Positions 11,449 to 63,860 are shown, counted from the first letter of the stretch. The stretch is DNA of 64,000 bases from Parcubacteria group bacterium (GCA_016217555.1 JACRHW010000023.1:466-64465), one strand, 5' to 3'. Numbers and translations: made by a program. Notes: generated by a model not told the origin, from the letters alone.

Positions 11449-13077
11449 CTAAACAAAAAACGATAGTAACTCTTTTTTAAAGACATGGCACAAAAGAATT
11501 ACGCCGCCCAAAAGCCAAAAAGAAGTGAAGATCAAAGAAAATCGTGTCCATGGTGAGATAGGTGACATTATATGTAAATCCCCCGCAGCATAAGAAGTGG
11601 CTCCAAAAGATGTTGTCGCAATCTCCTTACCCGCTGGAGTTACGAGAACAGACCTTGCGTAGGAAGCCGCGAGCATGAGGGGCCTCCAATTTTCTACCGC
11701 ACGATACTCTACCACACGTACCTGCCAATCTGCATAGTAACTCCTCGACATAGTAAAGTCACTTGCCATATCGGCAATAAGTACTGCCCCGCGCCCCACA
11801 TCTCTTGCCACCAAAAAGGAATTAAACCCTTCATTGCAAAAGATCACAGAAATTTTTCCGAAAAATCCAGACAAGGGCGAGTTATTCTCCCCGACCCCTT
11901 CAGGGAAAGATTTTTGTACTTCCGGAGACCACATATCTTTCAATGGAAGAAATTCACCAAATGGAAATAGATTACGTTTGTAAGTCGTTCTGGGCACACC
12001 ACCACCTGTCACCAGACTTGCTCCGTTATGCCACGCATTCGACACTGTTGCATCCATAAACCCAAAAAGTGCCATATACCCAGGAGACAGAATATTTGAG
12101 ACTTTAAGGTTAAGGGTATCGAGTGAAGGATAATGCGCAAAAAATGAAGAAAGGGCCGAAGGACTACTCGGATATACAGAATATGTCGTCTCTGGAAGCA
12201 AAATAAATTTCTGGGTGGATACCCCCCCCAGATTCCTTTCTTGCACCAAACGCAGCAAGCGATCATACGCGTTCAATGTCCCTAGACTATACTTATCACC
12301 ATCACCCACCTGAACAACAATCCCATTTATACTTGCACCTTTTATGTATATTGAATTCACCCAACTCCGAATCCCCCAACCAATCGTCCCCCACACCACA
12401 AGAACAAGACACACCACGATCATCCGAAAAAAATATGTATTCTTAAACAAAATCCTTTTCTCCAAAACAAAAATCCAGTTAATCATCAAAACACCAAAAG
12501 AGACAATCCAAACACCCCCAACACCCGCCAACTGTCCAAAAATACTTGAAGCAGGAAGAAAATACCCCAAAGAAACCCCCATATCAAAATTCAGATAAAA
12601 AAGAATAAGCTCAATAAAAATCCAGAATGAAGACAGTATTGTAACGATCAAAAAGGTTGACATTCGTGACGCAAAAATCAATCTCTTTGAAACAAGCGAA
12701 TATAATCCCCATGCCAATCCATGTAATAATCCCATAAAGACAAGTATGGCAATCACCACCCCCCAAACGATGTAAGGAGAAATTCCGAGCCACGGATATG
12801 GAGCGGAGATAAGATACACATGAAAGAAAAACACGTAATACAAAAACCCAAAAAGAATACCACCCCAAAAGATATTCTTTTCTGAAAAACCTCTAGTAGA
12901 CAAGATTTTAAACCATGGGAAAAAAGCAATAAATACTAGCGGCCAGATATTTAATGGAGGAAAAGCGACAACAAGAAAAGCGAAAGACAAAAGTACAGCA
13001 AAAATAACCCGAACCAACGGGAAGGAAATAAGCTTTTGAAAAGAAATGGTAATCCTCTTAATAATCACACCTTGCAA
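11449..13077 (-). CDS. lnt: Apolipoprotein N-acyltransferase-like (polytopic membrane N-domain + CN-hydrolase domain)
   Basis: N-terminal ~230 aa has 6-7 TM helices. The C-terminal domain has an ISVIFCNEGF Cys motif similar to the Lnt ICYE catalytic Cys. Contains a G8 homopolymer (12222-12229) in frame. Confidence 0.55.
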   Translation of the reverse strand: MQGVIIKRITISFQKLISFPLVRVIFAVLLSFAFLVVAFPPLNIWPLVFIAFFPWFKILSTRGFSEKNIFWGGILFGFLYYVFFFHVYLISAPYPWLGISPYIVWGVVIAILVFMGLLHGLAWGLYSLVSKRLIFASRMSTFLIVTILSSFWIFIELILFYLNFDMGVSLGYFLPASSIFGQLAGVGGVWIVSFGVLMINWIFVLEKRILFKNTYFFRMIVVCLVLVVWGTIGWGIRSWVNSIYIKGASINGIVVQVGDGDKYSLGTLNAYDRLLRLVQERNLGGVSTQKFILLPETTYSVYPSSPSALSSFFAHYPSLDTLNLKVSNILSPGYMALFGFMDATVSNAWHNGASLVTGGGVPRTTYKRNLFPFGEFLPLKDMWSPEVQKSFPEGVGENNSPLSGFFGKISVIFCNEGFNSFLVARDVGRGAVLIADMASDFTMSRSYYADWQVRVVEYRAVENWRPLMLAASYARSVLVTPAGKEIATTSFGATSYAAGDLHIMSPISPWTRFSLIFTSFWLLGGVILLCHVFKKELLSFFV

Positions 13078-13137
13078 TCTTCAACTCATGATATAATAAA
13101 ATAAGAAAATGTTCACTTTATTAAAATAACAAAAAAC

Positions 13138-16100
13138 ATGCGCATCATCGTTAAGTTTTTTTCAGTATTCACCATAAGCGTCACACTATTGACACCAAGT
13201 CTTCTTTTTGCACAAAGCCCAATATCCCAAACCCCAATCCCACTGATAGGGGGTTCTTATGCTCCACCCGCACAAGTCGATGTTGTAAACGTAGTATTAG
13301 AAAAACAACAATACAACGACGGTGATACGATTCGAGGATCATTCGCCCTAAGAAATGAGCGCGCAGAAAGCGTACCTGCTATTTATTACAAAATCATCTT
13401 GGGTGGTGATTTCGATGCACAAGGAAACGCAGGAACAATATACGATGTAAAAACATTCACTCCTTATTTTCTACGCCCCGGAGAATTTAAAACAATACAA
13501 TTTGAATATACACCCCCTATTGGCGTTACAGGAAAACATTTAGGAATAATCATAAATGCATTCCTCGAGCAAGGAACACCAGTGAGTTGGTCATTCCCTA
13601 TTTTTTTAAATGTAGCGGGTGACTTTTCTTATATTAATGCCTCGGATACAAAAATAGTCGTTAATAAAAAGGAATTTTCTACAGAAGAAGGTCCTGCACT
13701 TTATAAAAACCAAGTGGTAGAATACCATGTGACGCTTCAAAATCCCTCCTCAAAACAAATCACAATAACGCCTAAGATTGATATTTACAAACGAGTCGCA
13801 TTACCCCCCACTCTAAAAAGCTATAACGAAAAACAAATAACCCTCGCCCCAAAAGAAAAAAAACAAATAGTTTTTGAACTCCCCGATTTCGATTATAAAG
13901 CAGGCGTCTATGCGGGTACTATCTTGCTCATAAATAAAGAAGGAAAACAACAGGGACCACTATTAACATTCAGATATCTTGTATTAGGTGACACGCTTAC
14001 TATTGAGAATGTTACTCCCTCACACACCAGTGTAACAAAAGGTGCCTCATTCTCTATAAGGGTAGACTACAGCACGCCGTTAATTGATTTTGCTACAAGC
14101 CAAACGGTAGATCTGGGAACACCAATCCTTGAAATACAAGCATATAACGAAAGAGATTCTTTGGTCGCAGAAGGAAAAAGCACAATAAATCCAACCAAAA
14201 TAGAACGAAACAAAATATTCCAACTCAAAGCATCTGATGACGCCAAAGCCCTACGAATCGAAGCCAAAATTCTAAAAGACGACGTCATTATTGCCAAATA
14301 TTCAACCAACCTCTCCTCGGATTATGCAATCCAAAAAGAACGTAAAGATCTCTCCTACCAAGGGACTCTTCGTGCGTGGGTTTATGGAGTTATCGTCATA
14401 CTACTTCTTCTTGCTGCTACTGGCCTTTTTCTCCTCAAAAGAAAAAAGGGGGGCACACTACTTGTCGTTGGAGCAATCTTTCTTGCCATTTTTTCATCTC
14501 ATGAGACAAAAGCACAACTTGGAAAACAAACGCAACTTGGATACCAAACACAAACACAAGAACAACAATGTACTTCGCAAGGAGGAGTTTGGGTGCTTAA
14601 CACATCCAATACAGGAGGATCCTGTACACTTCCACAATCACTTTCGCTTGATTCAGTCGCTGCATCGCCTAACCCAACATCGTGGAGTAGCCAGGTTACC
14701 ACCCTGGGGTGGTCAGGAAAAGATGAAGTAAAAATAATAACAGAGACAAAAGACGTGTGCGTTCCAGGAAAGGCGTGTGTACCACAAACGACACAAAGCG
14801 CCAAAACGTTTCCTACGACCTGCACCTTATCTGGAGATAAATATTCTAATTACAATATCACTTCTTACCAAAATGATAGTGTAAATATGTTTAGTGCGGG
14901 ACCTGTTTTTTTAGGGGGAGATAAATCGTTTATATTAGGAGGTGGCACCAGCGGACCAGGATTCTCCACAGCAGTTCCAGACGAAGGAGCTACTTTTACC
15001 ATTACCTGTAGCAACTCAAATGGATCACATGCTTCACAAGTAATTGGTGTGGGGGTGGGGGGAACTTTCACTTACACAACAGCACCAAGCATTAACGTAA
15101 CTCCATACTTCAACCCCACCGCAGCAGTACAGACAACTCTTGCCCTAACCGCAAGCCCAACACAAGGACTGGTGAAACCTAGAGATACTATTTATCTTGG
15201 TGTAAATACTACCGGATCTGGATGCACAAACACATTTTCAACAGCAGTCTATACCATAACTCCAACATGGCCAGGAGCATCAACACAGTCAGGAAGTAAT
15301 GGTGTTGGGGGACATCAAATTCTTAATTATAATCTTCCTTATACTTTTGCGGTTACAATACCAGAAAATACACCATCTGGAATTTATCGTATTTACCTTT
15401 CTACAAATTATTTTCTTGGTGGATATTGGGAAATTAAAGTTAAGGCTCCAAACCCAACCATCGGATCATTCTCTGCAAATCCAACCACAATAGCGAAGGG
15501 CGGGACCTCTTACCTTTCGTGGTCATCGAATAATGCAACCTATTGCACACTTTCTAGTGTCGGAAACGTCCTCAAAAACTCAAGCTCATACCCTGTTTCT
15601 CCGACGCAAGATACAACGTATACACTTACTTGCTACAATGCCTCAAACGTCCCATCGCCAACATCACAACTCACAGTAAACGTCTTATCAATTGGTTCGT
15701 TTAGTGGGGCAGCATCGATAATACCCAAAGGAGGAAGTACCACACTTACGTGGTCATCAAACCACACAGATTCCTGCTCACTCTTTGCAAATGGAACTCT
15801 GTTTGCAAGTGGACTGAGTGGAAATACTTCTTATACTGTTTCTCCTTTAGTGGATACAACCTATACACTCACCTGCTATGGAGGAGGCACTCAAATTTCT
15901 GCAGGAAATTCAGTACCCATAAAAATTTTAGCAATTGATACATTCACGGGCCCCGCAAACACAACAATACTTACTGGAGATACAGTAAACCTTTATTGGA
16001 CAACAAGGAATGCAGCATCCTGCTCATTATCAAGCGTTGGTAATGTACCTACAACAGCAAATCCATTTACCGTCTCCCCCACCCAAGACTCGACGACCTA

Positions 16101-16824
16101 CACTCTTACCTGTTCTAGTGGCGGTGTTTCGTATACATTCCCCACACCGATCGTCATTAAAATCCTCTCTATCCCAGTCTTCACTATCTACCCCACTACA
16201 ATCTACAGAAGTAATCCTACTACAGCCACTCTTACTTGGATTACCAAAAATGCATCAACATGTAACGCCTCATCGGATCCAAATGTATCTGATTGGTCGG
16301 GATTAAAAACGGTAGGCAACGATGCTTCGGGACAAGGTTCTCAAAAACAACAAACGATAACGCTCCCGAGTCCACCCAAAGGATCTGCACCAAGAAAATA
16401 CACTCTCACATGTACAGGTCCAGGAGGAGCGCCAAGTCTCCCGAAATCCATAGAGGCACCAAAAGATTTCATTTTCCATACCCTACTCACCAAAATAACG
16501 TGTTCAAAAGACAACACAACCTTTGGAGACTGTTCTGGAATAAAGCTTGTTGCAGGAAGCTCAATATATCTTAAGGACGAATCTGATCCAACACCAGGCT
16601 CAACAATTTCAAGTCGTCTATGGACATTTAGTAACGGGAAACCATCAACATGTCCTTCATCTCATGCAGGATGTACTAATCTACAAATCCCAAAAGTATC
16701 CTTCCTTACCGAAGGGACACAAACGGCAACGCTTGTCGTAACCGATTCTGCGGGAGAGACAGAAACGATCTCGAAGACATTCAAAATCTCAAAACCATCA
16801 TTCCAAGAAACAGCGCCACAGTAG
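13138..16824 (+). CDS. Giant surface protein, paralog 1: signal peptide, N-domain, central membrane helical hairpin, 4 Ig-like Cys-containing repeats, conserved C-terminal domain
   Basis: 1,228-aa ORF. Signal peptide MRIIVKFFSVFTISVTLLTPSLLFAQS. TM helix + KRKKGG followed immediately by a second signal-peptide-like helix (aa ~410-455). Four ~85-aa repeats with the pattern L.W.S.NA..C...(YTLTC). The C-terminus is near-identical to paralog 2. Confidence 0.8.
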   Translation: MRIIVKFFSVFTISVTLLTPSLLFAQSPISQTPIPLIGGSYAPPAQVDVVNVVLEKQQYNDGDTIRGSFALRNERAESVPAIYYKIILGGDFDAQGNAGTIYDVKTFTPYFLRPGEFKTIQFEYTPPIGVTGKHLGIIINAFLEQGTPVSWSFPIFLNVAGDFSYINASDTKIVVNKKEFSTEEGPALYKNQVVEYHVTLQNPSSKQITITPKIDIYKRVALPPTLKSYNEKQITLAPKEKKQIVFELPDFDYKAGVYAGTILLINKEGKQQGPLLTFRYLVLGDTLTIENVTPSHTSVTKGASFSIRVDYSTPLIDFATSQTVDLGTPILEIQAYNERDSLVAEGKSTINPTKIERNKIFQLKASDDAKALRIEAKILKDDVIIAKYSTNLSSDYAIQKERKDLSYQGTLRAWVYGVIVILLLLAATGLFLLKRKKGGTLLVVGAIFLAIFSSHETKAQLGKQTQLGYQTQTQEQQCTSQGGVWVLNTSNTGGSCTLPQSLSLDSVAASPNPTSWSSQVTTLGWSGKDEVKIITETKDVCVPGKACVPQTTQSAKTFPTTCTLSGDKYSNYNITSYQNDSVNMFSAGPVFLGGDKSFILGGGTSGPGFSTAVPDEGATFTITCSNSNGSHASQVIGVGVGGTFTYTTAPSINVTPYFNPTAAVQTTLALTASPTQGLVKPRDTIYLGVNTTGSGCTNTFSTAVYTITPTWPGASTQSGSNGVGGHQILNYNLPYTFAVTIPENTPSGIYRIYLSTNYFLGGYWEIKVKAPNPTIGSFSANPTTIAKGGTSYLSWSSNNATYCTLSSVGNVLKNSSSYPVSPTQDTTYTLTCYNASNVPSPTSQLTVNVLSIGSFSGAASIIPKGGSTTLTWSSNHTDSCSLFANGTLFASGLSGNTSYTVSPLVDTTYTLTCYGGGTQISAGNSVPIKILAIDTFTGPANTTILTGDTVNLYWTTRNAASCSLSSVGNVPTTANPFTVSPTQDSTTYTLTCSSGGVSYTFPTPIVIKILSIPVFTIYPTTIYRSNPTTATLTWITKNASTCNASSDPNVSDWSGLKTVGNDASGQGSQKQQTITLPSPPKGSAPRKYTLTCTGPGGAPSLPKSIEAPKDFIFHTLLTKITCSKDNTTFGDCSGIKLVAGSSIYLKDESDPTPGSTISSRLWTFSNGKPSTCPSSHAGCTNLQIPKVSFLTEGTQTATLVVTDSAGETETISKTFKISKPSFQETAPQ

Positions 16825-16840
16825 AAAACTCAACGACCTG

Positions 16841-16872
16841 AAACAAAGCCACGCAATTGCGTGGCTTTGTAG
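16841..16872 (+). terminator. Rho-independent terminator after paralog 1
   Basis: AAAGCCACGC-AATT-GCGTGGCTTT hairpin. Confidence 0.6.
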
Positions 16873-16978
16873 TTATATATGATCACACGATGCAAAAATC
16901 GAAGCTTTACACAAGACGAACACATCTATGCATGGTAAAATAAAGGTGTAAATCTAAAAAAAATAAAACACAAAAAAC

Positions 16979-19900
16979 ATGCGTATTTTAAAATTCTTTT
17001 CGGTCGGAACAATCCTTTTATCATTACTATCCCCTCTCTCGATCTTTGCACAGACACCTACTCCAACACCACCAGCGCAAAAATCTTTTGCACCACCTGT
17101 TCAAGTATATGTTATTGAGGAAACTCTGAACAATGCAGAGTTTAGGGGTGGAGACACAATAAAAGGATCTTTTAAGTTTGTGAACAGAGGAGATGAAAAT
17201 ATTCCTGAAGTATATTACCACTTATCCCTTATGGGCGATTATGACAAAAATGATGCCCCTGGAGTTATTTATGATCAAAAAACATATGGTCCATTTTTCT
17301 TGCATACTCAAGAGACAAAACCTATAGATTTCGAATATACACTACCGAAGGGAATAAGCGGAGATCACATAGGCATACATATTAGTACATTTTTAAAAAC
17401 TGGGTTATTCCTTGGATGGTCACAATCCTTCATAAAAATACAAGGAGAAACACACCGCATAGATTTCTCCAAAGTAAGCTTGGCGGTAGATAAAAACGAG
17501 TTTGATCCAGAAACAGGACCAGCTGTCTATAAAGGAAAACAAATCACCTACAACGTTACCCTGTTTAATCCCTCCACCGATACAATTACATTTACCCCCA
17601 CAAATCACTATATATAAAAGGAATCCTATTCCTCCTGCTATCACAACATACAATGAAAAAGAGATAACCCTCAAATCAAAAGAAAGCAAAGAAGTACGTT
17701 TTCTCTTGCCAACATTCGATTATCAACCATCTGTATATGTCGGCAATATTACCTTTATTACCCAAGACAAAACACCAGCAGGACTCTTCTTAACATTCAG
17801 ATATATAATAATGGGAAAAGTGGTCGGAATAGATTCCATCATATCTGAAAAAACATCTATAGAAAAAGGGCAAACGCTTACTGTTAAAGTAAATTACAGT
17901 GGCGCTCCTGCTGACAATATCACCTTCGAAAATACAAAAATAGGAATTGTCACACTGCGCGTAAAAGTAATAAACGAAACAGGTACGACGATAGGACAGG
18001 GGGAAGAAACTATCGATGCTGATGACCAATCGATGACAACAAAAAACGTCCACATTCTCGCACGAGAAAGTGGGAAAAAAATAAGTGTTGAAGCTCAAAT
18101 CATAAAAGACGGTAGTATCTTGGGGGAATATTCTTCAACACTATCTCCGCCCGAAGAAACAAACAAACTCACCTTATTCCCACTTTCAAAAAAGATCATC
18201 TATTCCTTTATTATTTTTCTCATATTCTTAATGGGCATAATGGTTTTGAAATCAAAAGGAAAAAAGGTAATTACAATTTTCTTGCTAGGACTCTCCCTCA
18301 CAACACCTGGACTAACTATACCAAATACATCACGTGCCGCATCGGGTACCTCCTATTTCCAATATACTTCTTCATCTCATACTTCAGTTCGAGATCTCAC
18401 TTTCGATCTTACTGGCGTAAATCCAATTCCCTACTATCTAAATCCAGGAGAGTCTTTCTATATATCAGGAACATATGTGGGTGGGTTCTGCGCTAATGGT
18501 CATTTGCAAGGAAGCACTTCGGTAAGTATCTCAGGAGGAGGAAGTTGGAGCTGGGGATGGAATATTCAAGGGTCTGGTGGTCATCATCATGGAGTTTTTT
18601 CTCAAGGGTTTGGCTATTGGGTTTCTGCACCAACACAGCCAGGTGTATATAATGTTAATTTCTCGACCAATGCACTTGGCCCATCAATAAACGGCTACTG
18701 GCAAATCCAAGTTATCCCCCCTCCTCCATCAATAAACTATTTTAATGGAGGCCCACTTGTAACCATTCCAGGAATTCCCGCATATCTGAATTGGTCATCA
18801 AATAACGCCTCCTCGTGCACGGTGTGGGGAAGTTCCAGTGGTCTCCCTCCAGTAAGATCTGGTTATCCCGTATATCCAAACCAAGACACCTCATACAGTC
18901 TCACGTGTTATAATTCGGCCGGTGTTTCAGCTAGCTATCCCTACCCCATAACCGTATCTATACTGCGTATTAATTCCTTTGGTGGCAGTCCGCCAATAAT
19001 TGCAAAAGGTGGTTCGGAAAATCTTTTCTGGTCTTCAAACCATGCATCAAACTGCGTTATCCCAGGTGTCGGAACATTCTATCCCGGTTCTTCAGCGACA
19101 GTATCCCCGATACAAGACACTACCTACACACTACAATGTTCTAATGGGGGTGTGTCTATTACCTATCCAACCCCTGTCACCGTCAAAGTTCTATCTATAG
19201 ATTCGTTCGGAACTTCTTCCCTCATCGCTTCTGGGGAATCTGCGACTCTTACATGGACTTCTCATAATGCAATCTCCTGCTCACTATCAGATGGATCCAA
19301 AACAATCGCAAGTGGTCTTCCTGGAAATGGCTCACATCCAATTTCCCCACAACAAGATACTTCGTACACCCTCACCTGCACAAATGGAAGCGTCTCATAT
19401 ACCTACCCCACACAAGTCACTATTAAGATTCTCGATATTCCTATTTTTACCATTGATCCAAAGGAAATCAATCGTGGTCAACAGGCAACGCTCACGTGGA
19501 TTACTAAAAATGCATCCACGTGTACCGCCTCGTCAAATCCGAACGATTCCACGTGGATATATACCAACCCGCCAAAAAATGATAATCAACAATCAAAAAA
19601 TGTTACACCACCAAATCTACCTCCAGGGTCAATACTTCGCAACTATTCTCTCACCTGTACAGGACCTAGTGGAATACCAAGTCTCACAAAATCAATACCG
19701 GCTCCAGGGCTTAAGGTTCACACCCTTCTTCCTGAATTTCAATGTTCAATGACAGGACAACCAGGATCCTTCGGGGATTGTTCAACTATGAAGTTGGTTG
19801 CAGGAACTACAATATATTTCAAAGACACCTCCAGTCCAACCCCACAAGCAACTATTGCAAGTCGGGCATGGATATTTACGAATGCAAAACCAGCAGGATC

Positions 19901-20048
19901 AAATACAGCAACCACAAAAACATCCTTCCTTACCGAAGGGACACAGACAGCAACGCTTGTCGTAACCGATTCTGCGGGAGAGACAGAAACGATTACCAAA
20001 ACATTCAAAATCTCGAAACCATCGTTCCAGGAGACAGCGCCACAGTAG
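16979..20048 (+). pseudogene. Giant surface protein, paralog 2, interrupted by a +1 frameshift in a C5 tract (track ORFs 16979..17617 and 17502..20048)
   Basis: The two overlapping frames align collinearly with paralog 1 (…ITFTP | QITIYKR… versus ITITPKIDIYKR). Removing one C at 17595-17599 restores a single ~1,020-aa ORF with the same architecture as paralog 1. Confidence 0.7.
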
Positions 20049-20062
20049 AAATGTTGAAACCC

Positions 20063-20096
20063 AAAACAAACCCACGCAATTGCGTGGGTTTGTTGT
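20063..20096. terminator. Terminator after paralog 2 (also downstream of the convergent minus-strand gene)
   Basis: AAACCCACGC-AATT-GCGTGGGTTT hairpin. Same structure as the paralog-1 terminator with compensatory G/C swaps. Confidence 0.6.
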
Positions 20097-20123
20097 TATG
20101 TATCATTTCCTACAATGGCTCAC

Positions 20124-20561
20124 TTATCTAAATCGTACAGAAATACTTACCTTATCTATCTCAGAACCGTCCTTTGCAGAATAATCAAAAACCTCAATTA
20201 TTCCTCTCCTACCCTTTGGAAAAATAGAGATGTGTAATTCAAATAAACCAAACTGTCCAACATCAGGTGCTCCCGACATTGCCCGATCCTCAGCAAGAAT
20301 TGTTCCATCCTCGTCCTTTACTCTATATTGAAATACACTCTCGAAGACACGCGCTTCCCCCTTTATGGTAAGGGGAGAGATCACGAACTGATTTGAATGG
20401 GGGCTAATTATAATTATGTTTCCCGAAGACGAAATGCTTTTTGGGTAGTTATTTCCATCCTCTACGATGGACGCATCCTCGTGATAGATAAAACGTAAAC
20501 CCGCAAAGACCACCAAAGAAATAATAGCCATGATTACTACTATATAAAAAATTCTCTTCAT
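20124..20561 (-). CDS. Secreted/anchored protein with an Ig-like (Gmad2-like) beta domain, putative
   Basis: N-terminal anchor helix. The LTIKGEARVFESVFQYRVKDEDGTILAE segment resembles the GerMN-associated Ig-like domain. This is weak recall-based similarity. Confidence 0.35.
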   Translation of the reverse strand: MKRIFYIVVIMAIISLVVFAGLRFIYHEDASIVEDGNNYPKSISSSGNIIIISPHSNQFVISPLTIKGEARVFESVFQYRVKDEDGTILAEDRAMSGAPDVGQFGLFELHISIFPKGRRGIIEVFDYSAKDGSEIDKVSISVRFR

Positions 20562-55832: not shown

Positions 55833-58800
55833 TTAGCGATTAGTATTCTTTGCACGTTTTAGGATGATTGCGCAGAGAAGAATGAGTATAATGAGACCCA
55901 ATAATTTCCATAGCGTAACACGATCACGTATACCGCCACTATATAAAGTATTGATAATCGTCTCCCGAAATCCTATTGGTTTTAATTCAATGGTGCGCGT
56001 AAGAAGCTGTGATTCTACCTTAAATATCTCAGTTTTAACATCAGTATATCCCAATTTTGAGGCGGTAAGATAATAAGTGCCCTGTGGTACAAAAAAGGCA
56101 AATACACCATCGCCTCCTGTGATATATGGGTTTTTTTGTGCATAGGATATTGCATTCCATAACGTAAATGCATTCGTATGCTCATCTTGCTTATAAAGCC
56201 TGACGTACGCATTGGGTATACGCCACTCCTCTCCCCCTCGCTTGGTATAAACATACCCGGATGGATCAACAAGTATGTTTGTTGTAATCTCCTTTGAACT
56301 CCCATCCTTGTAAAGCACCGACACTGTTGCCTCGTATGCCCCCCTTTCCTGTGGGGCAACGACGTGTGCTGAAAAAGTATCTTTCATTTCAGTAGGTGCG
56401 AGCAAATATGAGGTAGTATCAAAATGAAGGGTAATAGCTTTAACTGATGCCTGTGCCTGATCCTGAAGAAGAGAAAAGATAAGAGGAGTTTCTGTGGTAG
56501 TTTCAATCGGATTCGAAGAAGTAACTGTGTGTATCATCTCACGCCCACCTATATCAGTGATAATAGAAAGAAAGGGGGGTGTCGGAGAAATATTTTGTTC
56601 AAAAGGTTTGGATGGTGTCGTGGAAATCAACGAAGGTGTGTTAACAACGAAAGTTTCGATAGATGGTGTGGTTAAGGTCGGTGTAGGGGTTGCAACAATA
56701 GCACCCGAAGCCACATTACCCTTCGTGTCTATCGTAAAAATACTATAATAATATTTCTTGCCCTGTTGTGCAGTAGTATCAGTTGCCTGTTGTGCTTTTC
56801 CTTCGAATATCACCGTACCTTCTTGAAGAGTAAGCGGGTAGAATGTTTCGCTGCGCACCACTTTTATTGTTTTAAGTTCCGATTGGGGAGGATTTTGCCA
56901 TTCGAGGAGGAGAGCATCTTGTTGTGACGAAATCTCAACATTTTTTACATTTGATACGGATGTTTGATTTTTAAAAAGATTAAGGTCGAGAAGATCAGGA
57001 ACAAGAATGTTGAGTTTTGCTAGTGTATTTTTTAACACCTTTCCATAGACAGGACTTCCTTCGCAAGCGATACCCTGTATGCACTGAAACTCTCCCACCG
57101 CCCCCTCTGTTTTTGGACCAAAAAAAGGAGAGATCGGTCCGGAGTACAATCCTGATTTTGCAAGAAAACTTTTAAGAACATATACATCATCGCCCTGACT
57201 TCCAAGCACAAGGGGACGAAGAAATGCGAGCTGTGGGGGAAGCTCTGGAACGATGGGTTGTGTGGAGGTTGGCGTTGTTTGTTGTTGATTTTGTGAAGGA
57301 GGTGTGGGTGCGGGACCAACAATGATAGGAGTACTATTACTCACAACAGGTGGGGCGGGGGTTATGGTGAGAGACACAGTATGAGAGTTGAACAATGCAC
57401 CCAGCGCAAGAGAGAGTGGGTTGACCACAAAAAGACGGGTGGTCGAAAACGCACCATAATCAGTGTAACCACCCGTCGAAGCTTTTGCCGCTGCACGCCA
57501 ACAATAATTTGCGTTTGATAATCCAGTACGAATTAAATATGCACTTTGAGCACCACCCGAGGTATTATAGATTCCCGTACCACTCCAACCCGGCGTAGAG
57601 GTGGAGTCAAGTGTAGTAATCCCAGAAGAAAATGTCTCTGAAGCACAATTGGTGTCATTACGTGTGACGTATTGAAGACGTACATTGAGAGTACGCGCAT
57701 CACCATCATTCACAGTCATGCCAAAAAATACCGATGAGCCGGTGGTAATACCATCACTAGGGTCGAGAGCAGTAGTGGTGGGCTGAGCACCAAAAACGAT
57801 AGTACCAACACCACCCGACAGTCGACCAGCTATTCCGGCATTGACTGCCCGCATAGAAGTATCCGCCAAACGATTCGTAAAATAAATAGCAATCCGGCCA
57901 CCACCACCAGCGCCACCGGTTGTACTCGTTGAATTACCCCCATTAGCGACGACGGAACCACTCCCCGTCAGCAGACCAGTGTTGATATATACCGATCCAC
58001 CGGCCCCACCACCACCCTGATCGGAACCAGCCACACCATTGGTGGTGATTGACCCATCGAGAGTCAATGTACCAGACAAAGCAAATCGAATAGCGCCACC
58101 ACCAGCGCCACCACCAGCGCCACCACCGCCGCCAGAACCCAAATCAGTCGGTGTCGTTGCACTGTCGTAAATTGCACCAGCCGTTCCTGCTGAACCTTCA
58201 CCCCAATTACCGGCTGCGCCAGCACCACCATGGCCGCCACCGCCACCACCATATCCGCCACAGCTTCTATCACCGCCACCGCCTGGACCACTACCACCCG
58301 ATCCGCCACAACTTATGCTACCAACGTAACCCTGGCCGTTAGCAGTAATGCTTGCACCACTGTCAACCTGCATATTAGTAGCAGTGATAACCACACCAAC
58401 CCCACCCGATACAGCATTTGTATTCTTACCACCCAAAGTCACGGTTGAGGTTCCCACAATGTTCAATGCACCAGACACTGTCAGATCTGATGCGCCACCA
58501 AGCGTCATTAAACTACTACTGACCGTGACGGTTGATCCAGCCGTAATCGGTGAGGTTGTACCGGTGATGAATGTGCCACCACCATCAACAATAATCGTCG
58601 AACCAACAGTGATAGGCGAATTGGCACCGATAGTCAATGAACCGCCGTTTACAGCTAGCGTCCCCGCAAGAATGATCGTTGAACTATCACCAGTCAACAC
58701 CGTTCCACCACTAGCCACAACCAGAGTCTGAATTGCCAGAGTAGTAGAAGCAGGATATACAAAGTTTTTGTAAACCGACAACCTTCGCGTGGCATCGGTT

Positions 58801-59867
58801 AGATGCCCCGACAAATCAGTTACCTGGAAAAAGCCAGTTGTACCTGCGTTCGAAGTCAAACTAAAATTAGTGCCTCCATTAGCAGTTGAAGCAGTGAATC
58901 CGGCAAAGCTGTTGTTGGTAACATAGTAAACTGCCACTCTTCCACCGCCACCAGCGGTATTGCCGATATGGCCAGCATCACTTGAATATCCACTACTACC
59001 CCCATTCGCCACCAGACTCCCTGAACCGGTCAACGTTCCTACTGTCACATAGATTGATCCACCAGAGCCTCCACCAGCGGCGCCATTTCTGCTTCCCCCA
59101 CTAGTCCCGTTGGCGGTAATGGTTCCATTGAGCGTCAGCGTATTAGTCACACTCAGACGAATTGCGCCACCACCAGTACCACCAAACGCACCGCCACTAG
59201 TACAGCAACTACCGGAACCACCCGATCCAAAATCGATTGGTGCCACTGAGGAACCATATGTGGCCTCCGGTGTATTGGGCCCATTGCCCGCTCCGCCATA
59301 TGTCCCACCATTACCATCGTTGTTACAGTTGAGTGGTCCACCACCTGGACCAACACCTGCCGATGAACAGTTGGTGCCGGCAAAACCCTGTCCATCAGCG
59401 ACAATCAATGCCCCACTGGCAACAGACACGTAGGCAAATGAGACTGGAATCTTCGCGCCGCTCGATCCATAAATCTCACTGCCAACAACGAGTCGTCCTG
59501 AGCCAAGAATCGTCAGTGTGCCACCACCGTTAAATGACCAGCCACTCGATTCGTATGTACAACCATGATCACCCACACCAGTACTGTTGAGCGACATACC
59601 ACTCGTACCGCCAATAGTAAGGGTAACACCATCATTAATAGTAAGATTACCGATGTTTGAAGGAATATCACTCGCGTCACACCAGATGGTATTTGTTGAG
59701 ATAGTAGAATCGGTTGCAAAAACACGCGGAATATAATGAAAAGAAAGAACAACAACAACAGATAGTATTACAAAAAAAACAATACTGATATGAAAAAATC
59801 GTTTATGTGTTACTATATTCAATAATTTTTTTATGGAAAACATGTTCAGTAAAAAATCAAAATCCAA
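55833..59867 (-). CDS. Giant (1,344 aa) cell-surface protein: N-terminal anchor/signal, duplicated Gly-rich beta-helix modules with GGGAIR (polymorphic-membrane-protein-like) motifs, PG_binding_1-like domain, Ig/Fn3-like domains, CarboxypepD_reg-like domain, C-terminal TM + basic tail
   Basis: Internal duplication of a ~160-aa module (...FGGTGGGAIRLSVTNTLTLNGTITANG...GGGSGGSIYVTVGTLTGSGSLVANGG... and ...GGGAGGGAIRFALSGTLTLDGSITTNG...GGGAGGSVYINTGLLTGSGSVVANGG...). GDDVYVLKSFLAKSGLYSGPISPFFGPKTEGAVGEFQ matches the peptidoglycan-binding motif. C-terminus LLGLIILILLCAIILKRAKNTNR. Confidence 0.8.
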   Translation of the reverse strand: MDFDFLLNMFSIKKLLNIVTHKRFFHISIVFFVILSVVVVLSFHYIPRVFATDSTISTNTIWCDASDIPSNIGNLTINDGVTLTIGGTSGMSLNSTGVGDHGCTYESSGWSFNGGGTLTILGSGRLVVGSEIYGSSGAKIPVSFAYVSVASGALIVADGQGFAGTNCSSAGVGPGGGPLNCNNDGNGGTYGGAGNGPNTPEATYGSSVAPIDFGSGGSGSCCTSGGAFGGTGGGAIRLSVTNTLTLNGTITANGTSGGSRNGAAGGGSGGSIYVTVGTLTGSGSLVANGGSSGYSSDAGHIGNTAGGGGRVAVYYVTNNSFAGFTASTANGGTNFSLTSNAGTTGFFQVTDLSGHLTDATRRLSVYKNFVYPASTTLAIQTLVVASGGTVLTGDSSTIILAGTLAVNGGSLTIGANSPITVGSTIIVDGGGTFITGTTSPITAGSTVTVSSSLMTLGGASDLTVSGALNIVGTSTVTLGGKNTNAVSGGVGVVITATNMQVDSGASITANGQGYVGSISCGGSGGSGPGGGGDRSCGGYGGGGGGHGGAGAAGNWGEGSAGTAGAIYDSATTPTDLGSGGGGGAGGGAGGGAIRFALSGTLTLDGSITTNGVAGSDQGGGGAGGSVYINTGLLTGSGSVVANGGNSTSTTGGAGGGGRIAIYFTNRLADTSMRAVNAGIAGRLSGGVGTIVFGAQPTTTALDPSDGITTGSSVFFGMTVNDGDARTLNVRLQYVTRNDTNCASETFSSGITTLDSTSTPGWSGTGIYNTSGGAQSAYLIRTGLSNANYCWRAAAKASTGGYTDYGAFSTTRLFVVNPLSLALGALFNSHTVSLTITPAPPVVSNSTPIIVGPAPTPPSQNQQQTTPTSTQPIVPELPPQLAFLRPLVLGSQGDDVYVLKSFLAKSGLYSGPISPFFGPKTEGAVGEFQCIQGIACEGSPVYGKVLKNTLAKLNILVPDLLDLNLFKNQTSVSNVKNVEISSQQDALLLEWQNPPQSELKTIKVVRSETFYPLTLQEGTVIFEGKAQQATDTTAQQGKKYYYSIFTIDTKGNVASGAIVATPTPTLTTPSIETFVVNTPSLISTTPSKPFEQNISPTPPFLSIITDIGGREMIHTVTSSNPIETTTETPLIFSLLQDQAQASVKAITLHFDTTSYLLAPTEMKDTFSAHVVAPQERGAYEATVSVLYKDGSSKEITTNILVDPSGYVYTKRGGEEWRIPNAYVRLYKQDEHTNAFTLWNAISYAQKNPYITGGDGVFAFFVPQGTYYLTASKLGYTDVKTEIFKVESQLLTRTIELKPIGFRETIINTLYSGGIRDRVTLWKLLGLIILILLCAIILKRAKNTNR

Positions 59868-63017: not shown

Positions 63018-63860
63018 CTAAGTTATCCACAAAGTACGAAATCTGATAACAAGAAAAGCTAAAACAATAGCAAGAAAGATCGCACGAAGAGGTAAGACAA
63101 AAAGATAATTGGTTTTTTGATGTTCTCCCTGAAGATCAAGGGAAACAGAGTAGACCCCCCACTGACGAATAGAGTAGGGAATTCCTATTTTTTTTTCCTC
63201 ACCAGGGAGTATATAAAAAGGCGCGACAGGAACTTCGACAGACTTACCACCAAATACGCTCTTTACCGAAATATTCCCAGACTGCTTCATGTATACGTTT
63301 CCAGAATTTTTGTACTGTATACCAAAGGCAACATCAGAACCTTCCTGCACCAAAGGCACCTCAAATTTCTTAAGCAGACCCGATGGGTGGAGTGCGTGTT
63401 GAGTGTCTATGGTCACAAAAACCTCGGTTGATACTCTACTTACCACCATCACACCACCACCGTTCCGTGTATTTTCACTTATCACGACATTGGCGTAATA
63501 CACTCCATCTCCAATTCCCCCAGGGGCTTGGATAACAAGCGAAGAAGAAATTTTCTCGTTGGGGCGTAAGGTGAAAACAGGAACTTCTACAGTAATCCAG
63601 TCATGGGCATCTGCGACACCATTACCACGACCTTCAGGAGCTACTTTAAAATCAACGGTTTCGTTACTATGATTTACAATAGTGAGAGTACTTGTCCCCA
63701 TTCGATGTTCTGTGAGATCAAAATCAAAATGAACCGGAGAAACAATAAAATCATTTCCCGCAGACAACGGAATGTGTGTAATAGTAAACGCATGCGCGTG
63801 GGGAACAATAAGCCCCACTATTAGACCTAAACTAATAAAAAAATACGTTATTAATTTCAT
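63018..63860 (-). CDS. Secreted two-domain beta-rich protein with C-terminal TM anchor (280 aa)
   Basis: Signal peptide MKLITYFFISLGLIVGLIVPHAHA and C-terminal LFVLPLRAIFLAIVLAFLVIRFRTLWIT. Contains an A9 run (63188-63196, minus strand). The architecture is reminiscent of Gram-positive DUF916/DUF3324-type anchored surface proteins; this is tentative. Confidence 0.55.
   Translation of the reverse strand: MKLITYFFISLGLIVGLIVPHAHAFTITHIPLSAGNDFIVSPVHFDFDLTEHRMGTSTLTIVNHSNETVDFKVAPEGRGNGVADAHDWITVEVPVFTLRPNEKISSSLVIQAPGGIGDGVYYANVVISENTRNGGGVMVVSRVSTEVFVTIDTQHALHPSGLLKKFEVPLVQEGSDVAFGIQYKNSGNVYMKQSGNISVKSVFGGKSVEVPVAPFYILPGEEKKIGIPYSIRQWGVYSVSLDLQGEHQKTNYLFVLPLRAIFLAIVLAFLVIRFRTLWIT

Follow-up and report, generated by a model that had tools for sequence, protein, structure and literature searches.

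Two adjacent genes in a 64,000-nucleotide (nt) stretch of DNA from a Parcubacteria group bacterium (GCA_016217555.1, JACRHW010000023.1:466-64465; hereafter the window, with positions counted from its first letter) encode very large proteins whose middle is formed by a transmembrane (TM) helix, a short basic loop and a second, signal-peptide-like helix. This hairpin was conserved in a protein family that has so far been seen only in genomes of the candidate phyla radiation (CPR)/Patescibacteria. That this is a real family with the hairpin architecture is almost beyond doubt, and the hairpin is neither a chance feature nor an assembly fusion. On balance, the proteins are probably Sec-exported polyproteins; cleavage by signal peptidase I would yield a base anchored by the hairpin and a cysteine-containing fiber, the two working as a pair.

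Gene 1 (13138 to 16824; all features are on the plus strand unless stated otherwise) is an intact family member in the open reading frame (ORF) list. It encodes protein p1 of 1,228 amino acids (aa), which matched the hidden Markov model (HMM) of the family's N-terminal domain (N-domain) with an E value of 1.8e-130. Gene 2 (16979 to 20048) starts 155 nt beyond gene 1 and, as read, consists of two ORF pieces, 16979 to 17617 and 17502 to 20048, both of which matched the N-domain HMM (1.9e-61 and 3.6e-54). Frame comparison located the +1 shift at five consecutive C residues (17595 to 17599), where the two frames join at ACA TTT ACC CCC A|CAA with one extra C. Removal of this base gave protein p2 of 1,022 aa, a paralogue with the same architecture that lacks one extra unit found after the hairpin of p1. 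A full-length alignment of p1 with the repaired p2 gave identities of 38.6% (N part) and 45.7% (C part); at about 40 to 46% identity, the two appear to be old tandem paralogues. The 848-aa frame 3' of the shift is intact and conserved. A database protein of 780 aa (P0006) is 99.9% identical to p2 aa 243 to 1022 and starts downstream of the shift site, indicating that the shift may also exist in an independent assembly. The shift may mark a recent pseudogene or a phase-variable site instead of a read error. Programmed frameshifting was considered and is unlikely, since no stimulatory element was found and a one-base change in the C run suffices.

The layout common to p1 and p2 consists of a signal peptide, three beta-sandwich domains, a TM helix, a loop rich in K and R, a second hydrophobic helix with an A-x-A site, immunoglobulin (Ig)-like repeats and a PKD-like domain. 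Only three hydrophobic segments were detected by hydropathy in each protein, namely, the N-terminal signal peptide, the first TM helix (TM1) and the second segment of the hairpin. In p1, the N-terminal Sec signal peptide (MRIIVKFFSVFTISVTLLTPSLLFA|Q, 13138 to 13212) has its hydropathy peak at aa 7 to 25, followed by L-F-A|Q. The N-domain (aa 30 to 412, 13225 to 14373) comprises three tandem beta-sandwich domains and a short C-terminal helix and has no cysteine. TM1, the predicted stop-transfer helix (aa 413 to 433, AWVYGVIVILLLLAATGLFLL, 14374 to 14436), is conserved in the family and reaches a Kyte-Doolittle 19-residue peak of 2.73. It is followed by the presumed cytoplasmic loop KRKKGG (14437 to 14454), whose codons form the homopolymer tract AAAAGAAAAAAGGGGGG (14437 to 14453). 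Then come the internal signal-peptide-like helix and its c-region (aa 440 to 459, TLLVVGAIFLAIFSSHETKA, 14455 to 14514), hydrophobic at aa 440 to 454 and ending in T-K-A|Q, with a predicted signal peptidase I cut at A459/Q460.

The hairpin of p2 is built in the same way from TM1 (IIYSFIIFLIFLMGIMVL, aa 406 to 423, 18195 to 18248), the loop KSKGKK (18249 to 18266, read from the DNA and protein sequence) and the second segment (VITIFLLGLSLTTPGLTIPNTSRA, 18267 to 18338), which is hydrophobic at aa 430 to 440 and ends in S-R-A|A, with A453 as the residue at -1. The second segment begins six residues past TM1 in both proteins. In an AlphaFold model of p2, built with a 51-sequence alignment (mean predicted local distance difference test [pLDDT] score of 81), the hairpin formed two antiparallel helices (aa 402 to 424 and 429 to 441) followed by a disordered A-x-A linker (aa 443 to 455).

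Cysteines are confined to the part after the hairpin, which holds all 19 of those in p1 and all 11 in p2; the N part has none. The C part of p1 (aa 460 to 1228, 14515 to 16821), as aligned with p2 and relatives, contains an extra cysteine-bearing Ig-like unit that is missing from p2, the post-hairpin domain, four Ig-like repeats, the PKD-like domain and the tail. The four repeats (aa 775 to 1100, 15460 to 16437; L.W.S.NA..C ... YTLTC) are 79 to 97 aa long and carry one cysteine pair each (803/832, 880/913, 962/992 and 1042/1092); the equivalent part of p2 was modeled as beta-sandwiches. The C-terminal PKD-like domain of p1 (16465 to 16791) matched Pfam PKD_4 below threshold. With PF18911 and PF00801 tested, the scores were 14.5 bits (E = 0.037) for p1 and 20.4 bits (E = 5e-4) for p2, against a cutoff of 27. 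PKD_4 was matched in 7 of 51 relatives, with a best E value of 2e-9, and the domain was modeled as a beta-sandwich. Pfam matches of DUF4131 and GtrII on the hairpin (E = 0.003 to 0.008) were rejected as compositional, arising from the hydrophobic helices.

A motif scan of p1 and p2 detected no LPxTG-like motif before TM1, the loose matches lying at aa 659, 970 and 1026 of p1 and aa 447 of p2. There was likewise no PEP motif and no lipobox ([LVI][ASTVI][GAS]C) in either protein, and neither C terminus has a TM segment. The type IV pilin model N_methyl did not match p1 or p2, both signal peptides being of the Sec type. By their motifs, the two proteins are not sortase, exosortase, lipoprotein or pilin substrates. 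The CARDB and DUF11 models of Pfam gave no significant match to p1, p2 or the 51 relatives. An earlier note, written from the sequence alone, had described two proteins of 1,228 and about 1,020 aa (after repair) sharing one architecture, with a TM helix ending in a basic patch, a second signal-peptide-like helix with an AxA-type site, four cysteine-containing Ig-like repeats of about 85 aa, and no LPxTG or PEP-CTERM motif before the central helix. The ORFs, the full-length alignment, hydropathy, the p2 model and the motif scan bear out this description in each respect.

The hairpin is not peculiar to the window. An exhaustive HMMER search against 1.84 billion representative sequences returned 4,618 hits, of which 294 had E <= 1e-30. 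In the top 150 of these 4,618 hits, at least 85 representatives, each less than 50% identical to the others, bear the N-domain of about 380 aa at their own N terminus. A second class of hits matched the Ig-like repeats alone and consists of giant proteins of many other bacteria, with thousands of repeat hits. An automatic detector recognized TM1, the basic loop and the second helix in 75 of 87 sequences (the 85 representatives plus p1 and p2), and most of the remaining 12 showed them on inspection by eye, giving about 80 representatives in all. The family medians are 20 uncharged residues for TM1, 7 residues for the loop and 19 uncharged residues for the second segment, and the mean net charge of the loop is +3.7. 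The sequence beyond the hairpin ranges from 300 to 1,300 residues, and the middle of the C part is highly variable. Both window proteins share the N-domain profile, the hairpin, the post-hairpin C-x-N motif and the P-x-F-x-E tail with the family.

The family appears to be uncatalogued. The HMM searches that the earlier note had called for showed that neither Pfam nor NCBIfam covers the N-domain, the post-hairpin domain or the tail; PKD_4 alone appeared, in the 7 members given above. A word-index protein search with the full-length query gave no match, and the N-domain alone or a 26-sequence profile retrieved only P0002 and P0151. Foldseek with the whole p2 model returned only generic Ig strings with TM-scores of 0.1 to 0.18. 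A literature search that included papers on the surface biology of Saccharibacteria found no description of the hairpin family or of internal signal peptides in Patescibacteria.

The (-3,-1) rule is the classic pattern of signal peptidase I substrates, and in the 51-sequence full-length alignment the second helix obeys it column by column. The -1 column, which corresponds to A453 of p2 and is at least 90% conserved, has Ala in 46 of 51 sequences (G in 2 and S, T and M in 1 each). At -3, all 51 residues are within A, T, S, V and L (24, 12, 6, 6 and 3, respectively). The -2 column is variable and frequently charged, the helix breakers P, T, S and G are enriched at -5 and -6, and the +1, +2 and +4 columns favor F/W/Y, T and T. 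The other parts of a Sec signal peptide were also recognized. A positive loop (KRKKGG or KSKGKK) stands directly before the hydrophobic core, as an n-region does, and the core is followed by a polar c-region with helix breakers, disordered in the AlphaFold model, that leads to A-x-A (T-K-A in p1 and S-R-A in p2). Judged from these columns, signal peptidase I is likely to cut at the internal site.

Relatives in which the two halves are separate genes support the same reading of the second helix. Three homologues (P0059, P0088 and P0127) end after TM1 and a short basic tail, that is, inside the cytoplasmic loop. In all contigs with these split forms, the next gene lies on the same strand, with an 8-nt overlap (L012 and L015) or a 3-nt gap (L017). 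The second genes begin with the signal peptides MDNYRYQQWLGWGRSLIGALFAVTVLWLATPTPVQA|YASF, MRRYRVDHFVLSPSAGQLLRIAAVVFCIVAPIATHA|FLSY and MKRINLLLILAITIILSGVAIQPEKVGA|T, whose cut sites read ...TPVQA|Y, ...ATHA|F and ...KVGA|T. Two of the three encode the post-hairpin C-x-N motif, and the third ends in GGNGREI, the family tail. The split proteins are present on 5, 5 and 2 contigs, respectively, from different samples, which rules out sequencing errors. Identity between P0059 and P0088 is only 46%, indicating that the split has persisted over time; P0127 shares about 33% with each of them and represents a separate split event. The split forms show that the second helix is the signal peptide of the C part and that the halves can act as separate, genetically linked chains. 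The likeness of the architecture to a fusion of a C-terminally anchored protein with a secreted one, proposed earlier from p1 and p2, thus has a counterpart in three lineages with two adjacent genes, the second of which has its own signal peptide.

The overlaps in L012 (7292 to 7299) and L015 (7463 to 7470) are in the +1 frame and fall inside the same cytoplasmic loop, and the loop, which in gene 1 contains the tract AAAAGAAAAAAGGGGGG, looks like a hot spot for gene fusion, splitting or breakage. The second gene of the split form in L012 (7292 to 13299 region) encodes 3,251 aa, indicating that the fiber part can become very long. Some relatives (L012, 1 to 2996, and the P0112 contig) adjoin other giant surface proteins with Laminin_G_3.

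From these features we infer the following route to the surface. The N-terminal signal peptide would start export of the three Ig-like domains, and TM1 would halt transfer and insert in the membrane. The K/R-rich loop would remain cytoplasmic, in keeping with the positive-inside rule, and the second helix, acting as an internal signal peptide with an N-in/C-out orientation, would resume export of the C part. Both large parts would in this way come to lie outside the membrane, a topology that we consider very probable. Signal peptidase I would then cut past the conserved A-x-A, leaving an N fragment held by the hairpin and a cysteine-containing Ig-like/PKD-like fiber that runs from the post-hairpin domain to the E-[IF] tail. 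The two products would likely be paired as a membrane base and a distal fiber or adhesin, and synthesis as a single chain would fix their ratio at 1:1 and bring both to the same translocon.

Several observations weigh against this polyprotein reading. Cleavage was inferred from sequence statistics only, and the window sites T-K-A|Q and S-R-A|A are weaker than the family consensus A-x-A|[FWY]T. The second helix is almost as long as TM1, and long h-regions can be uncleaved signal anchors. The AlphaFold model gave no confident contact of the tail (pLDDT < 50) and leaves the association of the fragments unsupported. The second gene in L015 has no tail. Gene 2 carries a frameshift and could be inactive.

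A rival reading is that the hairpin is a permanent, uncleaved anchor, so that one chain would carry two extracellular arms and the small residues would only mark the exit from the membrane. The median of 19 uncharged residues is long enough for the second helix to span the membrane, and AlphaFold packs both helices as a hairpin. The occurrence of Ala in 46 of 51 sequences at -1, together with the restriction to A, T, S, V and L at -3, would be difficult to account for if no peptidase were involved, however, and in the split forms the halves are separate chains, the second of which has this segment at its N terminus as a normal signal peptide. An uncleaved anchor is therefore unlikely.

The C part is conserved at both of its ends. 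The post-hairpin domain is a beta domain with an invariant Cys and Asn (C504 and N506 in p2; consensus P.V..N.P...PGQ.F...G......C.N). The family tail is [PG]-x-[FYIV]-x-E-[IF]-COOH, with examples in P0018, P0021, P0029 and P0063 and, in the window, at 16792 to 16821 and 20016 to 20045. Its penultimate Glu is present in 57 of 78 full-size family members versus 3 of 64 nonfamily hits (p = 5e-18). A clade like that of Gottesmanbacteria ends in KPSFQE plus 2 to 4 extra residues; p1 has this local form, KPSFQETAPQ (16792 to 16821), and shares the TAPQ extension with P0001, P0003 and P0058. No TM helix follows the tail, which is disordered in the p2 model. By its appearance, the tail could be a signal for sorting, docking or processing; we know of no described counterpart of E-[IF].

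If the C part were cleaved and released as a soluble protein, the N fragment would have an unrelated role and the fusion would serve coexpression only. The lack of confident docking of the tail in the AlphaFold model is in line with release, as is the great variation in the middle of the C part, at about 300 to 1,300 aa. Fusion or tight adjacency of the halves has been kept across many CPR lineages, however, and conservation of the N-domain goes hand in hand with that of the post-hairpin domain and the tail, as is typical of physically interacting partners. This joint conservation and the conserved linkage of the halves point to a physical partnership, and release is quite improbable.

The earlier note had allowed that the homologues might prove to be two separate genes and the fused ORF a product of assembly, and had suggested a comparative search for the architecture. 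A degenerate DNA pattern for FRY[IV][IV]xGDIxT was searched in GTDB species genomes and gave nine loci, eight of them true and one (L010) a chance match of the pattern. The eight loci encode the N-domain in Candidatus Kaiserbacteria, Staskawiczbacteria, Taylorbacteria, Saccharibacteria, a 'Patescibacteria group' genome and three other metagenome-assembled genomes. Seven of the eight, independent CPR loci, have the hairpin and A-x-A within a single continuous ORF, as do most homologues; the L005 locus stops inside the N-domain.

One protein of 454 aa (P0002) is 99% identical to p1 and ends past TM1. It is encoded on contig L001 (JACRNZ010000096, GCA_016214705.1) of a Candidatus Gottesmanbacteria bacterium, which is 99.6 to 99.8% identical to window 11865 to 14457; the window was assigned to the same lineage. 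This contig turns to unrelated sequence for its last 344 nt (2422 to 2765), 4 nt past the tract at 14437 to 14453, and has a 172-nt deletion nearby. These defects indicate a chimeric or poor contig instead of evidence for split genes, and P0002 was rejected as a natural split form. That the fused ORFs are artefacts, whether of an assembly or annotation join or of read-through of a real stop, has next to no chance of being correct: the end of P0002 just past TM1 and the three homologues that truly are two genes speak for it, but L001 is defective, and both paralogues, about 80 representatives and seven of eight loci have one frame through the hairpin.

The 3' ends of the two genes are more alike than the rest. 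The homogenized block of gene 1 (16696 to 16875) covers the last ~127 coding nt, the terminator and ~5 nt beyond; by comparison with it, the block of gene 2 extends from 19920 to 20098. The terminator scan found the hairpins ACAAAGCCACGC AATT GCGTGGCTTTGT (16843 to 16870) after gene 1 and AACAAACCCACGC AATT GCGTGGGTTTGTT (20065 to 20094), which scores on both strands, after gene 2. Their stems, AAAGCCACGC...GCGTGGCTTT versus AAACCCACGC...GCGTGGGTTT, differ by one compensatory G/C exchange, so that the swap noticed earlier is real and involves one pair. At positions with the same amino acid, the two genes used the same codon 32 times out of 40 within the last 42 codons and 176 times out of 409 elsewhere (Fisher p = 8e-6). 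A convergent gene (20124 to 20561, minus strand) shares the gene 2 terminator; its product is a small Ig-like protein with a Gmad2 match (Pfam E = 2.4e-18) and a membrane anchor.

Purifying selection on the C-terminal peptide and the terminator alone, with no gene conversion, could in principle produce this near-identity. P0001, P0003, P0005 and P0058, from other organisms, keep almost the same last 40 aa, indicating that the constraint at the protein level is strong too. Against this reading, conservation extends to synonymous positions (80% versus 43% identical codons), and the noncoding spacer and terminator are likewise almost the same; selection as the only cause is not probable. The best reading is that the last ~42 codons and the terminators are kept near-identical by gene conversion on top of the protein constraint, in agreement with the homogenization proposed before.

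The closest functional parallels appear to be the viral glycoproteins cut by signal peptidase and FbcH of Bradyrhizobium japonicum. FbcH is reportedly a cytochrome b/cytochrome c1 polyprotein made from one gene (work attributed to Thony-Meyer and Hennecke, about 1989 to 1991). It too yields two membrane-associated proteins from one bacterial gene by means of an internal signal peptide after a TM segment and a signal peptidase cut. It is a respiratory enzyme and a single case, without a large N-terminal exported domain, Ig-like fiber or conserved tail, whereas the family described here has hundreds of members. The viral glycoprotein polyproteins (bunyavirus Gn-Gc, flavivirus prM-E and alphavirus E2-6K-E1) share the order of ectodomain, stop-transfer helix, short cytosolic loop, internal signal peptide and next ectodomain, and their cleavage gives two surface proteins that stay complexed. 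They are viral genes expressed at the eukaryotic endoplasmic reticulum and show no homology to the family, in which bacterial Sec and signal peptidase I would do the work. An internal signal peptide and signal peptidase have been named together with the orthobunyavirus polyprotein (PMC6784171).

Other large surface proteins resemble parts of the architecture. The N part alone resembles surface proteins of archaea and monoderm bacteria that are built from CARDB or other Ig-like domains and held by a TM anchor at the C terminus; the family differs in having no significant CARDB or DUF11 match and, in about 95% of its members, a second predicted exported protein past the TM helix. LPxTG sortase adhesins of Gram-positive bacteria have a long Ig-like string, a monoderm-type surface and a hydrophobic helix with a basic patch, but in the family no such motif precedes the helix, the helix is in midprotein and the C terminus has no TM segment. 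SlpA of Clostridioides difficile is one precursor that gives two associated surface proteins and is cut outside the cell by a dedicated cysteine protease; it differs from the family in having no internal signal peptide and no membrane hairpin. The Foldseek matches Aureispira GhpA and the Chlamydomonas mastigonemes are beta-sandwich beads-on-a-string whose TM-scores of 0.1 to 0.18 reflect a generic likeness, and none has a membrane hairpin. The architecture is unusual for bacteria, although the machinery, Sec and signal peptidase I, is standard.

The surrounding genes of the window are housekeeping genes of a small genome (sufS, sufU, a PcrA/AddA-like helicase, dnaK, dnaJ, groEL, dnaG, rpoD, prfA, comEC and an H+-pyrophosphatase). 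Divergent from gene 1 lies an lnt-like apolipoprotein N-acyltransferase gene (11449 to 13077, minus strand; TIGR00546, E = 1.5e-27, below cutoff), which is surprising in a presumably single-membrane CPR cell. The 172-nt deletion in L001 lies within the copy of this gene at 493 to 1032. The lnt-like gene was rejected as a functional clue, since it adjoins a family gene only in the window and in the near-identical L001.

Two further ORFs of the window are of interest. In a 280-aa ORF (63018 to 63860, minus strand), the signal peptide reads ...VPHAHA|FTITH, and the C terminus consists of a TM helix and a basic tail; the predicted mature protein would start at A|FT[IV]T, as the C parts of the family do by consensus. 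A 1,344-aa ORF (55833 to 59867, minus strand) encodes another large envelope protein, with an N-terminal TM helix or signal peptide, a PG_binding_1 domain (E = 1e-5) and, weakly, a match to Rib. Its C-terminal TM helix bears the tail KRAKNTNR, and LPxTG is absent.

Elsewhere, nusA is the divergent neighbor in four of the eight loci, including that of Saccharibacteria (L006, 1773 to 3020; L008, 1750 to 3006; L009, 3230 to 4384; L011, 3504 to 4736), which points to a conserved genomic position of the family gene in many Patescibacteria. The window lacks this arrangement. In several relatives the family gene adjoins type IV pilus genes: those for PilC, three N_methyl pilins and the prepilin peptidase PilD lie directly upstream on the same strand in L019 (1 to 4917), a PilB-type ATPase lies downstream in L008 (6368 to 7999), and PilC and a 458-aa N_methyl protein lie downstream in L015 (9902 to 12885). 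No pilus genes were found within 10 kb of the family genes of the window.

The CPR/Patescibacteria, which make up a large share of bacterial diversity, have a lifestyle of attachment to other cells, and for most of their surface proteins no function is known. The family is widespread among them, in Gottesman-, Kaiser-, Taylor-, Staskawicz- and Saccharibacteria, and recurs next to nusA or pilus genes. A role in host or cell attachment, as the earlier note proposed, is suggested by the all-Ig architecture, and we offer the use of a base-plus-fiber complex for attachment as a tentative possibility. A still more speculative and rather doubtful extension is a lineage-wide two-subunit surface organelle of Patescibacteria. 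In such an organelle, the N fragment would be the membrane dock and the fiber would bind to it through the post-hairpin domain and/or the tail, perhaps by strand insertion or a novel tail-recognizing enzyme. It would work with type IV pili in host attachment, and the tract of K/R codons would be the place where the genes are fused, split or switched off. Gene callers and topology predictors would do well not to handle such proteins as ordinary two-TM membrane proteins. In cultivable Saccharibacteria, genetics and proteomics have concrete targets in the A-x-A site, the E-[IF] tail and the post-hairpin domain. Cleavage at the internal site, if it occurs, would make this, to our knowledge, the first large bacterial family to obtain two surface proteins from one chain by the strategy of the viral glycoproteins.

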